Shown: positions 17,501-23,500 of the stretch, piece by piece
Numbering within the stretch: position 1 is the first letter of the stretch
How the letters are laid out: every line of letters starts with the position of its first letter
DNA from: an uncultured bacterium
Lineage (GTDB): Bacteria > Babelota > Babeliae > Babelales > Babelaceae
Direction: 5' to 3'
Assembly: GCA_963713855.1 (NCBI GenBank)
Contig: OY970209.1
Location: 480,001 to 544,000 of the forward strand
Length of the DNA stretch: 64,000 nucleotides
Made by a program: the position numbers

Positions 17501-20500
17501 CTTACAAATACTGGGCGTGGGTGCAAAATATCCTTATATCCTTCTTCCAGTAAGCTCTACTCTTGTTCCTTTGGATCAAGGTTTTGACCTTGCCTTAGCC
17601 TATTTTTATTACGGTGTTCGAGAAGAAGCTAAAAAAGAAGCTGCAAAGCTTGAAAAATTAAACAAAAAAAAGAAGTTGGAACTTGTTGCTCAAGGTGCCG
17701 AGGAGCCTCCCGTAAAAAAAGGAGAGGGCGCAGAGCTTATTAGAAAAGCACTTAAAACATCAAAGATATCATTTACAGATGTCACCACAGGTTTAAAGGA
17801 CGTGAAAGCTATTGCAGTACGTAGAGACCATCCTGCTATTGCACGAGGTGGTGTGGCCCATTCATTTTTACATACACGTATACCTGTCGAATGGTCAGAA
17901 ATGATGAACGCTTGGTATATACCTTTACACGTTCAAGCTGGTTTTGAAAAAAACGAAGGAGTATGTGCTCTTCTTGTCGCCCATTATGATGAAAAGACTG
18001 GTCTTGATATAAGGCCTTTTTTGCCAGCTTCTGCTGTTACTTCCGATAGTATTGTTGCTATGACGCAGCCTGGAGGCACGGTCGGTATTTTTCATACAGC
18101 CTCCCTGGCCACGACAACGTGGTTACCGTACCTTGTTGTTGTAGGCGGAACTGATAACTCATGTAAAAGGCAGGTTTCGGCGCTACCAGTGGTTGGAGGA
18201 CTCGATTGGAAAACAAGGGGCACGCTTGCTAAAAAGAATCAAACGCCCGTTTTCGAGTTTAGAGAGGATGAGCTTCTGTCACGTACATTTTTAGAGCCTG
18301 CGTTAAAGCCAGAAGATGTTCCGACAGTGGACGATGCCGCTGTTTTAGTGGGCGGTGGATTAGCGCCGGGTGATGTTACACAGCTTTCAGTGAGCGGCGA
18401 CGCCGTCTTTATCGCCGTCGATGCTTCTCAAAAAACGCGAGGCGGCATCTATCATTCTCAAGCACTCTTTGATGGTAACGGGTCCATTGTTGGCTGGACA
18501 GCTTGGCAAAGAGCTGCTGGTATTACCCAACCGGTTTCCTATTTTGCTCTCGATGCAGTTGGTGGTGGAGATTATTGGTATGCCCCAAAAAATCAGGATC
18601 AAAGGTCGACCGAAGTGATGCACACTGAATGGAAATCAAAAAGCTCAGACAATACCCTTGAGCACACGTTAACAGAATTATTTAAGAATATTCCTTCAGG
18701 AATCCAGGATCTGAAATCCTATACTTATAGCGACGATGGCATGAGTAAGGCTGAAGGTAGCCGCGCAAGCTTTCTTATTGCAACGGGCTATGAGCATGTC
18801 GTTCTTATTCAATCTGGTAGTGATAGCGAGGGATCATTTGAGCCTACAAAGCATTTTGGAGACACGCAACTATTTGCTGACGGTTCTTTGAAAGGTTTTG
18901 AAACTGGACATCAGGTGCTTGACATATCCGGTGGCGTTTTAGCGGAGTTAGGACCCATTGTTTCTTCAGCGTTTATTAAAGATGCTGACAATATTTGGCT
19001 AGCCGTTGCTGGTACTGGTGGTGTGGCAATTCTTGCGCGTCCGGATGGCACAGGTATTCCTGCAGACGAGGGGCTTGGCTGTTGTTTTAAAGGCCTTCAA
19101 AGCGATATGCGCTTTTTTAAAATTGGAAGCTTTAAAAATGCCTACTCACTTCTCCCATGTAAAAATCTTTTATATATAGTAACACCAACGTTTTTGCTGG
19201 AATATCCTGTTTCAAGTAATACCATTAAAGAAATCGTTAAATGCAATGTGCGAGCTATAGCCAAAAACGGGTTATTTGAAGGGCACTCGTATTTTTTGGA
19301 CGCTTGGGCTTCACCTAAATACCTTTTCATAGGGACTGATAAAGGCCTTATGTATCATCCTCTAGAACCGTTTTGTACAAATGAGGGATGTCAGGCTTCT
19401 TGGAAAAATGTCACCATTCCTTATGGCGCTGGTGCTGTTAGTCGACTGTATCCTATTCGTGCTTCAAAGCATGAAAGCGGAATTTTTAACCTTTACGTTT
19501 TAAGCACGTCCGTCTCTAAAGACCAAACACGAGTATATAGGTACATACTTGATGAAAGTGGCAAAGAGCCATTGATTGATCTTTTACCGGATGTACTTCT
19601 AAAGACCGCTGGTAAAGCCTATTTTATAAACCTTGGTATTTATAGAAATCACTTTGCGACTGATGGTGCTTTGGCATTTTTTACAGGTTCGATTTTTGGC
19701 AGTCGTAGTCCGGCGGTTGATACGTGTCTTATTGATACGCTTACAAGGCGTCGTACTTTCGCTGATGGAGCTCAAACAGTTCTTAAGATTGCTGACGGGT
19801 CAAGCATTGGTGCTGTTTTACGCGAACCAGCCTCGGGTGATTTGATTGCGTGGGGTAGCTTTGGTGCTCGACTTACAAGCTAGTGCACATTTTTTGCTAT
19901 TAATGCGAGAGTTTCAGGAAGGTCTTGCGCATTTAAATGTTGGTAACGATTTTGTTCTTTTCCTTTGTAAAACACGCATAGTGTCGGAATGGTGTTTATA
20001 CCCAATTTTTGTGCAATAGTGGGCGTTTTATTAACGTTTACCGTATAAAAAAGAAGCTCGCGATTACTTGCTGCTATCTTCTCAAGTAACGAGAGAACGT
20101 AGGTGCAGCTTGGGCAGTCTGGTGAAAAGAAATCAATGACGATTCTTTTGGGACTTTTTTCAACAACGTCATTAAATTCTTCTAAGCTATTAATGGTTTT
20201 GATAACTGATGGCGCTGTTTTTGTCGTTTTATAAAAGAATGGTTCAAGTTTTTGTAAGACCTCATCATTGACGCCTAAAGTCTCAAGAAAATGCCATGTA
20301 TCAACTGCAGCTTTCATGCCGTTTCCAGCTGCTATACCCGCTTTTTCGTAGCCCTTTTCTTGAACAGAGCCTGCCGCGCACACACCTGGAATGGATGTTA
20401 TTTGTGAACGCCCTTTTACCGTGATATAGCCTTCCTTATCAGTTTTGATATGAGGTTTTAAAAGCTCGGTATTTGGCGCATAGCCGATGCCTAGGTAAAG

Positions 20501-23500
20501 CGAATTGATTGGTAGTTCTTTTACGATACCTGTTTTTACGTCTTTAATGCTGGAGCTTGTGACTGTGTGCTCGTTTCCATCTATGCGTACAAGCTGAGTA
20601 TTGGTAAGAATATCTATGTTCTTGCAAGCTTTAAGTTGATCGGTCACCATCGCACACGCTGTAGGTGTTGGTGCTTGTGTAATGAGCGTTACTTTTTTAG
20701 CGTACACGGCAACTTGACGAGCAAGCTCAGCTCCCGGTTCACCCCCGCCTACTACAAGTACATCTTGTCCAGCATTAAAAGGTCCGTCACATAAAGCACA
20801 TGTGCTTATTCCTTTAAGCCAATATTTTTCAAATCCTTCAATTGATGGCTTTTTTATAGTACTTCCGGTGGCAATAATAAGTGAAAGAGCATGGAAAGAA
20901 GTTCCATCGTCAGAAATGAGCTCAAAAGGCCAAGTAAAATTAACCTTTTTAATGGCTTGATTGATGATGTGCGTGCCAAACGACTGTGCCTGTTTTTGCA
21001 AATCGTTCATAATTTGGCTACCGGTCATCTTCTCCTTGCCAGGCCAATTTTCAATATGCTTTACATGTGCAAGCTGCCCACCGTGCTCATGCCCGGTAAA
21101 CACAACAGTTCTTAGCTTTGCTCGTGCAGTATAAACAGCCGCACTAAGCCCTGCAGGTCCCGATCCTATTATGGCAACAGGAACTATATTGTGCTTTCCA
21201 AGGGCGTCTTCGACGCGATACGGACGCAGCTTAGAGGTTCCTGCAAACACCTTGAAAGTAGTGTATCCACCAATTATAACAGCCAAGCCAGCAAGGAATG
21301 AAAGTACCGAAATTAAAACCTTTCTGCGCATATGCTAACCCAGTTACTATAAAGACAAACTTACTTGCTCATTATTCAATTATTGAATTTATTCCTGTTA
21401 ACTAGCAAGAGTTTTTTAGCGTCCTGAGGTAAATAGTAGCTCTTTGTACCCCAAGCCTTGTTTTTAAGCCTTGTTATGATGTATATTATATTTGTATTTT
21501 ATTAAGGAGTTTGGCGCATGAGGCTTTTTATAGCGGGGCTTTTAATCTGGTCAGCAGTTCTCGTGGCGGACGTTAATCAAGAGCTAAGAGTAGCTGTTTC
21601 ATCTGCCGACTTTATTGAGAAAAAACTGCAGGCTTTTTTTGATGATGAGGGCATGAGCCCGCTTAGGCTTTCTTATGAGCAATGCATTGCAGATAAAGCT
21701 CTTGGTAAACCCCAAAGAAGCTGTTGGACATTAGTTGCGCTATTAGCTTATAAAAAAGCGCTTTCTAACGACCAGGCACGTATTCTTTATCATTGGCTTA
21801 CAAAAGCACAAAGGTACCTTCCGAGCGAAAGCTTTGTGGAAGATTTTGCTGATGCACTTACAGAAATATAAAAGAAGGCTTGAAAGCTGTTTATCAAAAA
21901 AAAGCAGAGACTAGGATTTAGTCTCTGCTTTTTTTTACTTAGGTAAGAATTTACCAGGCAGGGCGGTTTTGATTGCTATCAAAAGAGCTTCTGCCACCAC
22001 CGCGACTTGGCGGACGATTGCCGGATGGACGGCTACCATAGCCATTTCCAGATCGGTTATTATCAAAACGATTTCCAGCTGGACGCTCTGGTCGTGGTTG
22101 AGCTTCACTTACTTTCATTCTTCGGCCTTTAACTTCTTTGCCATCAAGCTGTGCAATTGCAGCTTGGGCAGCTTCGCCTTGTTCCATTTCAATAAAAGCA
22201 AAACCACGTGGTAAACCAGTGAATTTATCTTTAATAACATTGACTGAAAGAATCGCGCCAAAAGGGGTAAAAAGATCTTGAAGTTCTTGTTCGGTAATGC
22301 TATTTGGCAGGTTGCCGATATACAGTTTCATAATAAAAGATTTCCTTAATGATTAGTAATATAAAAAAAGTGATAGAGATATAGTGATTGCTTATATAGA
22401 CAAGATCTTACTCCTTTTTGGCTTAGGTTCTACGTAATTTTTTATGTTTTGGCATGATAATTTGTTTGTTTTTTAAATATTGCAGCGCTGTGTGCATCTT
22501 CATTCTAGGATAGTAAAAAGGCTAGGACTTTTGCAATAGGCGTCGTATATCATAGGGAAGAACCTGAAAATGAGAGCGGTTTTGACTTATGTTGATAAGA
22601 AATTTTAAGCATTCACTAAAAGGAGGCATTTAAAACGTTTTCGTTGATGCGTTAGTAAGGCTTTATGGGCTTGAAACGCATTCCTGTAAGGTTATTTCCC
22701 TATTTATGCTACCCTATCTAGCTGTTTTGTCAACCTCAAAAAGTTAACCTGGGCATTTTGAGGGTAAAGCAGATAGCCAAACTGATAAATTAACGTTATT
22801 CTAGTACTTTATTAAGTATTAAAAAGTAGCTTTCTTCTGTGATTTTCTTTTCTTGCAGTAGCTAAAGGATTACCAATGATGGTATATCGATTTCTTCTAA
22901 CACTCGGTTTAGGTATTAGTGTTCTTAGTATAAATGGAAGCGTACCTAACAATCTATTCAATCCATATGACATCCTTTTATATAAACCGTTTTCGGCAGA
23001 AGAGCGTTTTGAATTTGGTGTTGTGTATGAAGGAGCTTTTAGGTCATTTGGTTTTCAGACCGATCCTGATGATAGAATCGTTGAAGACACGACTGGTGAT
23101 GCGAACCTGTTTCGAAGACCTGTTACACCTATGCAGCTTTGGCACGATAGTCAGAATTTTTGTGCCGCACTTTCTGGAGCAAGCCCTGATTCAGCTTTTG
23201 CGTCACATGCAAGCCTTCTTAACATCAAGGGCCAGCGCGTAGAATGTAACCTAAACATTGGAGCTCAGGTTTCTATACCCGTCAACTTGATGCTATCAGC
23301 GCGCTTTGCCCTTCCTTATAACCTTATTTTTGCCTTCTATGTTCCCGTTTTAAAGATAGGTGTTAAAAACATTCAATGGTCGCATAAACGGAAAGATACA
23401 ACGAGTTTTACCTCGCGATTGGATGAGGACTTTTTAAATACCACTGAGACATTGAGTAACAAGAACTTCCGGCAAGGATGGGAGCGATTTGGTCTTGGTG

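Follow-up and report, generated by a model that had tools for sequence, protein, structure and literature searches.

Signal-anchored thioredoxin reductase–thioredoxin fusions and a putative extracytoplasmic redox system in Dependentiae, a phylum in which NAD kinase was rarely found

Sequence analysis of a Dependentiae genome indicated that g464, which lies in the window (the whole 64,000-nucleotide stretch analysed, positions 480,001–544,000 of contig OY970209.1), is a conserved 'B' paralogue of a thioredoxin reductase–thioredoxin (TrxR–Trx) fusion in which the FAD site, both CxxC pairs and the fold are kept and the NADPH site is not. At least 121 of the 201 phylum genomes, from 12 families, carry the fusion, and the phylum-wide core is a predicted exported, NADPH-type fusion in cells that appear unable to make NADP. 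The genome-wide survey's note, whose g-numbers were assigned to genes by position (an inferred match), had proposed that exported duplicates of housekeeping enzymes form an extracytoplasmic NADPH–thioredoxin chain.

In g464 a TrxR domain (residues 52–349) and a Trx domain (residues 383–465) follow a 46-aa extension, which includes a basic n-region and a hydrophobic stretch of 16–19 residues (Table 1). The GxGxxG motif for FAD, the two-domain TrxR fold and the redox CxxC of low-Mr TrxB are all present, and the survey's report that the CxxC motifs and the DHYL motif of the glucose-6-phosphate dehydrogenase (G6PD) are intact was confirmed in the sequences. The AF2 model has a pLDDT of 92, a TM-score (of target) of 0.93 to 5usx and a helix at residues 2–30. 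Scores against TIGR01292 were 283 bits for g464, 313 for the second fusion and 352 for the cytoplasmic TrxR (curated cut-off 343). Neither NADPH motif, GGG(D/N)SA or HRRxxxR, is present in g464; the second fusion retains the two arginines. Both HRRxxxR arginines are also missing in g464 orthologues of 82% and 63% identity. That g464 is a decaying pseudogene was rejected, as its frame is open, its GC content is genome-like and these two orthologues carry the same changed site. Judging from these residues, g464 most likely uses NADH. Because both NADPH-binding arginines are gone from g464, the second fusion is the only one of the two that suits an NADPH chain, and the assignment of g464 to that chain was not upheld.

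Table 1 Features of g464 and of two further genes (window positions unless marked as contig positions; localization is predicted)
Feature	Position	Strand	Remarks
g464, signal-anchored TrxR–Trx fusion, subfamily B	19880..21331	-	483 aa
Basic n-region and hydrophobic helix	21263..21331	-	residues 1–23; predicted N-in/C-out anchor or Sec signal
FAD-binding GxGxxG	21149..21166	-	residues 56–61; intact
Reductase CxxC	20789..20800	-	C178–C181; intact; invariant across 69 homologues
NAD(P)H-domain glycine loop	20732..20749	-	GGGEPG replaces GGGDSA
Site of HRRxxxR (NADPH 2'-phosphate motif)	20654..20683	-	both arginines gone
Subfamily-B-typical changes	20339..20374	-	GD to GS, YRQA to YEKA
C-terminal thioredoxin domain	19937..20185	-	CPSC, C406–C409, at 20105–20116
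Second TrxR–Trx fusion, A type	contig 1283902–1285359		
Predicted exported G6PD copy	contig 1049909		

Comparison across the phylum showed that none of 50 cytoplasmic Dependentiae TrxRs keeps either HRRxxxR arginine, whereas both are present in 30 of 30 exported A-type fusions and in all 75 TrxRs from outside the phylum among the matches listed; the latter, mostly ordinary TrxRs, came from the fusion search outside the phylum and served as the outgroup. The split lies between two clades and is essentially one event. Loss of HRRxxxR accompanies NADH use in the TrxR of Thermoplasma acidophilum (PDB 3cty), according to the part of PMC6262447 drawn on here; that enzyme is cytoplasmic, unfused and distant in sequence, and NADH use in Dependentiae is predicted only. 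The NADP arginine of G6PD, the meaning of which is taken from PMC8546961, was found in 5 of 5 exported and 10 of 43 cytoplasmic copies. The G6PD signal was gained at least three times independently, with this arginine retained. In 6-phosphogluconate dehydrogenase (6PGDH), Asp ends strand 2 in 38 of 39 sequences, which we take to mark an NAD-type enzyme. Taken together, the cytoplasmic copies of the relatives appear to have switched to NADH, and most exported ones retain NADPH sites. The literature search found no published account of such a cofactor split between cytoplasmic and exported enzymes.

NAD kinase was found in one of the 201 phylum genomes, the present one, and in none of the other 200 searched (control, 14/14). 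The nearest NAD kinase (61%) likewise has a hydrophobic N-terminus; no relative was confirmed in a search of genome contigs. This genome also has the only D-R 6PGDH, its cytoplasmic G6PD retains the arginine, and it encodes cytoplasmic DHFR, ThyA and MurB, which are conventional NADPH users; its NAD kinase may therefore serve the cytoplasm. DHFR without NAD kinase occurs in two other genomes. A parasite living on host pyridine nucleotides without NAD kinase has a precedent in Chlamydia trachomatis, cited in 2015 as the sole known case in the portions of PMC3136453 and PMC4518329 consulted; in Dependentiae, by comparison, the absence extends to 200 of 200 other genomes searched of a whole phylum and comes with matching changes in cytoplasmic enzymes.

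As the survey had reported, hydrophobic N-termini are present on both fusions, G6PD, nucleoside-diphosphate kinase (NDK), Fe/Mn-SOD, Prx6 and NAD kinase of this genome. The gene counts (G6PD 2, NDK 2, Fe/Mn-SOD 2, TrxR family 3, NAD kinase 1, AhpC/TSA 1) agree with its description of exported duplicates for the first four but not for NAD kinase and peroxiredoxin, which are sole copies. As AT-rich upstream DNA can imitate a signal, mis-called starts were examined through ribosome-binding sites (RBSs) and alternative ATGs. An RBS was recognizable at six of the seven extended copies, that of g464 being weak, and no in-frame ATG that would give a cytoplasmic form was found between extension and enzyme core in the extended copies; the helix of the second fusion does contain one ATG, but this has no RBS. 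The cytoplasmic SOD showed a spurious hydrophobic TTG extension, its real start being ATG30 with AAGGAG. NAD kinase has the poorest signal of the set, with a 9-residue h-region that fails a stricter heuristic, and the n-region of NDK contains His and no Lys/Arg. Two further candidates were set aside: SodC as the exported SOD (no PF00080 (Sod_Cu) match, both copies being of Fe/Mn type) and NMNAT as an exported first step (it bears no signal). The exported G6PD has GxxGDL, the NADP arginine, EKPFG, DHYLxK and the catalytic Asp/His; its whole-protein score is 203 bits against a cut-off of 401. A DsbD-like protein, which already offers an electron route, is also encoded.

Among the genomes searched, the complete NAD kinase–G6PD–TrxR–peroxiredoxin chain occurred only in this one. 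Exported G6PD was found in 5 genomes of one family, and exported WCGPC thioredoxins adjoin B-type fusions in two genomes. As a whole, the chain is a scattered patchwork particular to this genome. The survey's chain thus stands in part: the second fusion fits it, but g464 does not, the genes are dispersed along the chromosome and the whole set was seen once.

These data make it probable, in our judgement, that an NAD(H)-biased cytoplasm is combined with a periplasm-facing thioredoxin system running on host NADPH, to which this genome adds exported G6PD and NAD kinase. In a cultured relative, which has a periplasm and sits in the host cytoplasm, 44% of proteins carry signals (PMC6561590). The enzymes would be Sec-exported or membrane-tethered and would face the periplasm of the intracellular parasite, where host nucleotides may enter, as the phylum's known ATP import suggests. 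The A-type fusion would pass electrons from NADPH through FAD and CxxC to its thioredoxin, keeping envelope thiols and exported peroxiredoxins reduced, and exported SOD would convert host superoxide to peroxide for the latter. The NADPH would be the host's, because the phylum lacks NAD kinase and because its TrxR and 6PGDH of the cytoplasm, with the majority of its G6PDs, have the look of NAD-type enzymes. In this genome the NADP-type G6PD could regenerate NADPH from host glucose-6-phosphate, exported NAD kinase was probably added, and g464 on NADH would widen the usable host pool. A more far-reaching version, in which pyridine nucleotides are split by compartment between an NADH-run, largely NADP-free cytoplasm and an envelope thioredoxin system on host NADPH (A) and NADH (B), with NADP synthesis and NADPH regeneration rebuilt by exported NAD kinase and G6PD into a self-contained extracytoplasmic NADPH cycle in this lineage, is put forward tentatively and is rather doubtful.

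It is unlikely that the enzymes pass beyond the periplasm, by type II secretion or outer-membrane vesicles, as host effectors draining or resetting NADPH, ATP/GTP and thiol pools. The host cytosol already possesses these activities, and most fusions bear long, uncleaved-looking anchors or lipoboxes; on the other side, the SOD, NDK, peroxiredoxin and NAD kinase signals of this genome look cleavable rather than anchored, type II secretion-like genes, judged by a look at the sequence, lie at window positions 31606–37659, and a relative releases vesicles (PMC6561590). It is improbable that the signals were acquired neutrally, leaving mixed copies, several of them non-catalytic, and no pathway. Crude heuristics, which flagged the cytoplasmic TrxR and missed NAD kinase, scored 540 and 605 of 1176 ORFs as signal-bearing, so that a signal alone is not unusual in this genome; the rarity of NAD kinase and exported G6PD, the divergence of g464 and of the exported G6PD (g972) and the unclustered genes point the same way. 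However, signals are unusual for these enzyme families (0 of 75 non-Dependentiae TrxRs among the matches listed), and catalytic motifs kept in every parsed exported NDK and G6PD, the wide retention of the fusion and the repeated gain of G6PD signals argue against neutrality.

Export is preferred, and its topology was assigned by simple rules with MreC and the inward-facing RNase Y as controls. The survey had checked signal conservation for g464 only; it now extends to TrxR–Trx, NDK, SOD, G6PD, Bcp/Prx and the nearest NAD kinase. All 80 homologues with extensions of at least 35 aa were hydrophobic there, with a basic n-region in 74 and a lipobox-like site in 15; as the lipobox pattern matched falsely in 2 of 12 MreC sequences, only end-of-helix L/I/V/M-[PSTGA]-[GS]-C was counted. 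Lys/Arg precede the helix in 41 of 42 TrxR fusions, 18 of 19 NDKs, 21 of 24 SODs, 5 of 5 G6PDs and 6 of 6 peroxiredoxins, compared with 12 of 12 MreC and 3 of 22 RNase Y sequences. The basic n-region, hydrophobic h-region and N-in orientation of Sec-exported or type II anchored proteins were thus found, and export over inward anchoring is well supported, localization being predicted. No TatC was found in this genome (91% complete), and Tat export was rejected, the RR of g464 also being RK in the 82% orthologue; FAD and metals would then have to load after export. The survey's own worry was that the TrxR–Trx N-termini are inward-facing anchors. That reading, in which the helices are N-out, C-in and the enzymes would work at the inner membrane from its cytoplasmic side on imported NADP(H), is improbable. 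In its favour, the flank behind the helix is on balance more positive than the one ahead of it in 13 of 42 fusions, the mean C-flank Lys/Arg count of the fusions (2.4) is intermediate between those of MreC (1.3) and RNase Y (3.0), TatC was not found, and cofactor loading would be trivial. Against it, RNase Y, which is the reverse anchor of this phylum, differs from these enzymes in its neutral or acidic N-tails, anchors, lipoboxes and cleavable-looking signals alternate within the same clades, and NADPH-site loss in plain cytoplasmic TrxR would be left unexplained.

A low-Mr TrxR with a C-terminal thioredoxin in one chain is also found in NTRC (PDB 7p9d, 9vv4) and actinobacterial TrxR–Trx fusions. 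NTRC is the plastid and cyanobacterial NADPH–thioredoxin reductase C, which feeds peroxiredoxins, and both kinds are soluble, in stroma or cytoplasm. The Dependentiae fusions differ in having a membrane anchor or lipobox and a CPSC thioredoxin site, and g464, anchored, without the NADPH motif and from a Dependentiae organism, departs from an NADPH-dependent, soluble enzyme of phototrophs. In the DsbD/ScsB–TlpA–PprX pathway the envelope likewise contains proteins of the thioredoxin fold and a peroxiredoxin with a signal; in the part of PMC3322552 used here, cytoplasmic thioredoxin supplies the electrons that are carried over the membrane and the reductase and NADPH stay inside, whereas in Dependentiae it is the reductase that appears to be exported. 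The exported G6PDs go back to the cytoplasmic G6PD of the phylum itself, unlike the eukaryotic ER-luminal hexose-6-phosphate dehydrogenase, a signal-bearing G6PD relative that produces NADPH in an extracytoplasmic compartment.

Envelope reducing power is classically supplied by cytoplasmic NADPH via DsbD-type shuttles, and NAD kinase is, to our knowledge, held to be near-universal and usually essential. If the proposal is true, a phylum without NAD kinase that carries an NADPH-type reductase outside the membrane would represent a new way for a parasite to live on the redox metabolism of its host and to withstand oxidative killing by protists.

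The window lies in a 1.52-Mb genome on a single contig (91% complete), and the named homologues of g464, a signal-anchored thioredoxin reductase–thioredoxin (TrxR-Trx) fusion, belong to Babeliales/candidate division TM6, which places the genome in Dependentiae (Babelota), a group of intracellular parasites of protists. The AF2 model of g464 (69 sequences; pLDDT 92; residues 2–30 helical) matched solved TrxRs (TM 0.93 of target to 5usx). Alignment to M. tuberculosis TrxR showed that the FAD loop and CxxC are retained, that GGGDSA, GD and YRQA are changed to GGGEPG, GS and YEKA, and that no arginine is left at the HRRxxxR site, the NADPH 2′-phosphate motif. 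The genome-wide survey's note, which had predicted an extracytoplasmic NADPH-thioredoxin chain of exported second enzyme copies, thus described a real set but was partly wrong at g464, whose NADPH motif is gone. The arginine loss is common to the 82% and 63% orthologues, and it falls within a 12-row clade (support 99; FastTree, 61 of 94 rows; families f1, f2, f17 and f18), named subfamily B here; exported fusions keeping the motif are called A-type. The B-type fusions at L011 and L025 are neighbours of an exported WCGPC thioredoxin whose signal is clear and looks cleavable.

Two proteins of the same phylum served as topology controls: RNase Y, with its N-terminus outside and its domain inside, and MreC, with the opposite arrangement. 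Among 30 loci each, Lys/Arg preceded the helix in 3 of 22 parsed RNase Y proteins, those three on doubtful GTG/TTG starts, and in 12 of 12 parsed MreC proteins. The corresponding counts were 41/42 for TrxR, 18/19 for nucleoside-diphosphate kinase (NDK), 21/24 for superoxide dismutase (SOD), 5/5 for G6PD and 6/6 for peroxiredoxin. In this the fusions resemble MreC, which weakens the earlier caveat that their N-termini could be inward-facing anchors, but their C-flank charge is intermediate and 13/42 are net more positive past the helix than ahead of it. Anchors, lipoboxes and cleavable-looking signals swap for one another in the TrxR-Trx family, an interchange that makes sense only if the domains are exported. 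TatC was not found in the 91% complete genome, implying that export would go by Sec, with cofactors loaded outside.

Genes were assigned to g-numbers by position. A usable in-frame ATG ahead of the enzyme core was absent from every extended gene, and the extended redox/nucleotide genes are unclustered. NAD kinase and peroxiredoxin, earlier counted as duplicates, have no second copy. The weakest signal of the set belongs to NAD kinase, where nine hydrophobic residues precede a Lys, but an N-terminus of this type is also present in its nearest relative (61%) and, by eye, in two more of the 119 homologues listed; the others lack it.

Export-tagged genes and associated loci (window, along the stretch; contig, along OY970209.1)
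Feature	Position	Strand	Remarks
g464	window 19880–21331	−	483 aa: 46-aa extension, low-Mr TrxR domain, thioredoxin domain with CPSC
Signal-bearing ORF	window 16932–19883		983 aa; no match in NCBIfam; convergent with g464, the two sharing 4 bases at their stop codons
RRM-type RNA-binding protein	window 21951–22331		upstream of g464; also adjoins its orthologue in a same-genus genome
Signal-bearing ORF run	window 7429–14160		by eye glycosyl-, sulfo-, methyltransferase-like; look like further normally cytoplasmic chemistry with export signals
Type II secretion/pseudopilin-like cluster	window 31606–37659		by eye
ATP-dependent ligase-, umuD/umuC- and Ku-like genes	window 40876–44525		grouped; by eye
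Second fusion (A-type)	contig 1283902–1285359		NADPH motifs retained; start at second ATG, by RBS
Cytoplasmic TrxR	contig 1318738		
G6PD pair	contig 1049909; 231784		first with signal
NDK pair	contig 737760; 223446		first with signal
Fe/Mn-SOD pair	contig 1024037; 874077		first with signal
NAD kinase	contig 1259352		sole copy; hydrophobic N-terminus
Prx6-type peroxiredoxin	contig 185828		sole copy; hydrophobic N-terminus
Signal-bearing protein, GMC-type FAD-binding start	contig 1396799–1398649		another flavoprotein apparently exported without Tat
DsbD-like protein; signal-bearing thioredoxin-fold protein	contig 938340–939716; 242514–243719		
thyA-folA pair	contig 1236435–1237873		

Signal conservation, previously checked for g464, was found to extend through the fusion family and to NDK, SOD, G6PD, Bcp/PrxQ and the nearest NAD kinase. 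Among 150 of 463 matches listed from 201 phylum genomes, 140 span both TrxR-Trx domains, in at least 121 genomes. Extensions of at least 35 aa occur in 80 of 92 database homologues (12 shorter or unparsed); all 80 are hydrophobic, 74 with a basic n-region and 15 with a lipobox-like Cys. By hand count, 40/201 genomes have two NDK copies and 15/61 two SOD copies. NDK was extended in 19 of 20 loci picked for long open frames (one unparsed), all 19 hydrophobic with the catalytic His, and 24 SODs with a hydrophobic extension were parsed from 50 selected loci. G6PD is present in 145/201 genomes; five of 49 parsed bear the signal, all in family f1 (loci partly picked for duplicates or long frames), and the tree calls for a minimum of three gains. 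Nine parsed peroxiredoxins included signal-bearing Bcp/PrxQ from five other genomes. Exported and cytoplasmic NDK lie in tandem at L095, L098, L099, L101, L102, L106, L107 and L108, pointing to local duplication after which the signal would have been gained. The single-copy SODs at L192, L197 and L222 are signal-bearing and have another ATG directly at the enzyme core, making two starts and dual localisation possible; L213–L220 hold an anchored, divergent SOD-like subfamily without the usual first histidine motif match.

NAD kinase (PF01513) was detected in 1/201 genomes, that of g464 (controls detected, 14/14). Among 94 distinct TrxR-family proteins, both HRRxxxR arginines are missing in 50/50 that have no long hydrophobic extension (from 49 genomes and 11 families; a single one bears a doubtful 22-residue extension) and present in 30/30 exported A-type proteins; the 14 B or other proteins keep both in 3, one in 8 and none in 3. 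Outside the phylum, both are present in 75/75 parsed (76/80 loci parsed, one a Dependentiae-type fusion). The exported group is sister to the cytoplasmic group (FastTree support 95), marking an old duplication, so that the arginine split counts as one event. Independent support for a cofactor split between cytoplasmic and exported enzymes comes from G6PD, 6PGDH, FolD and DHFR. NADP use of G6PD is marked by an arginine, according to PMC8546961. This residue is present in 10/43 cytoplasmic G6PDs, always followed by Asp/Glu, and in 5/5 exported ones, never so followed (one row with unknown residues dropped). Strand 2 of 6PGDH ends in Asp in 38/39; NADP-specific 6PGDH has Asn-Arg there. FolD was not found in the genome of g464, and DHFR occurs in 3/61 phylum genomes, two of the three without NAD kinase. 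However, the genome of g464 has DHFR, ThyA, MurB, a cytoplasmic G6PD with the arginine and the sole D-R 6PGDH, which argues, together with DHFR in the two genomes without NAD kinase, against a strictly NADP-free cytoplasm.

The present system would work like an envelope version of NTRC, but g464 lacks the NADPH motif by which TrxB and NTRC members are recognized. The known envelope reduction route is DsbD/ScsB (PMC3322552). In the portions accessible, one TM6 paper (PMC4776705) treats TrxR and SOD solely as oxidative-stress genes, another (PMC6561590) does not mention thioredoxin or NAD, and C. trachomatis is cited as the sole NADK-less species (PMC4518329, PMC3136453). In the open literature searched, no description turned up of Dependentiae thioredoxin, of exported, periplasmic or secreted TrxR, or, among listings, of Babelota NAD kinase/NADPH; subscription papers and TM6 supplements, outside this scope, could list these signals.

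Judging from the analogous T. acidophilum enzyme (PMC6262447), g464 probably draws its electrons from NADH; a non-nucleotide donor, or action in reverse, oxidase-like, is conceivable. Everything beyond the sequences themselves is inference. The A-type fusion would be reduced by host NADPH, and its thioredoxin would reduce the exported peroxiredoxin, fed with peroxide from superoxide by SOD, and envelope disulfides. In the genome of g464, exported G6PD would regenerate NADPH and NAD kinase may build NADP from host NAD and ATP, while exported NDK would even out nucleoside triphosphates prior to import. On balance, the set most likely, though by no means surely, constitutes a periplasm-facing antioxidant and thiol-reducing system running on host nucleotides.
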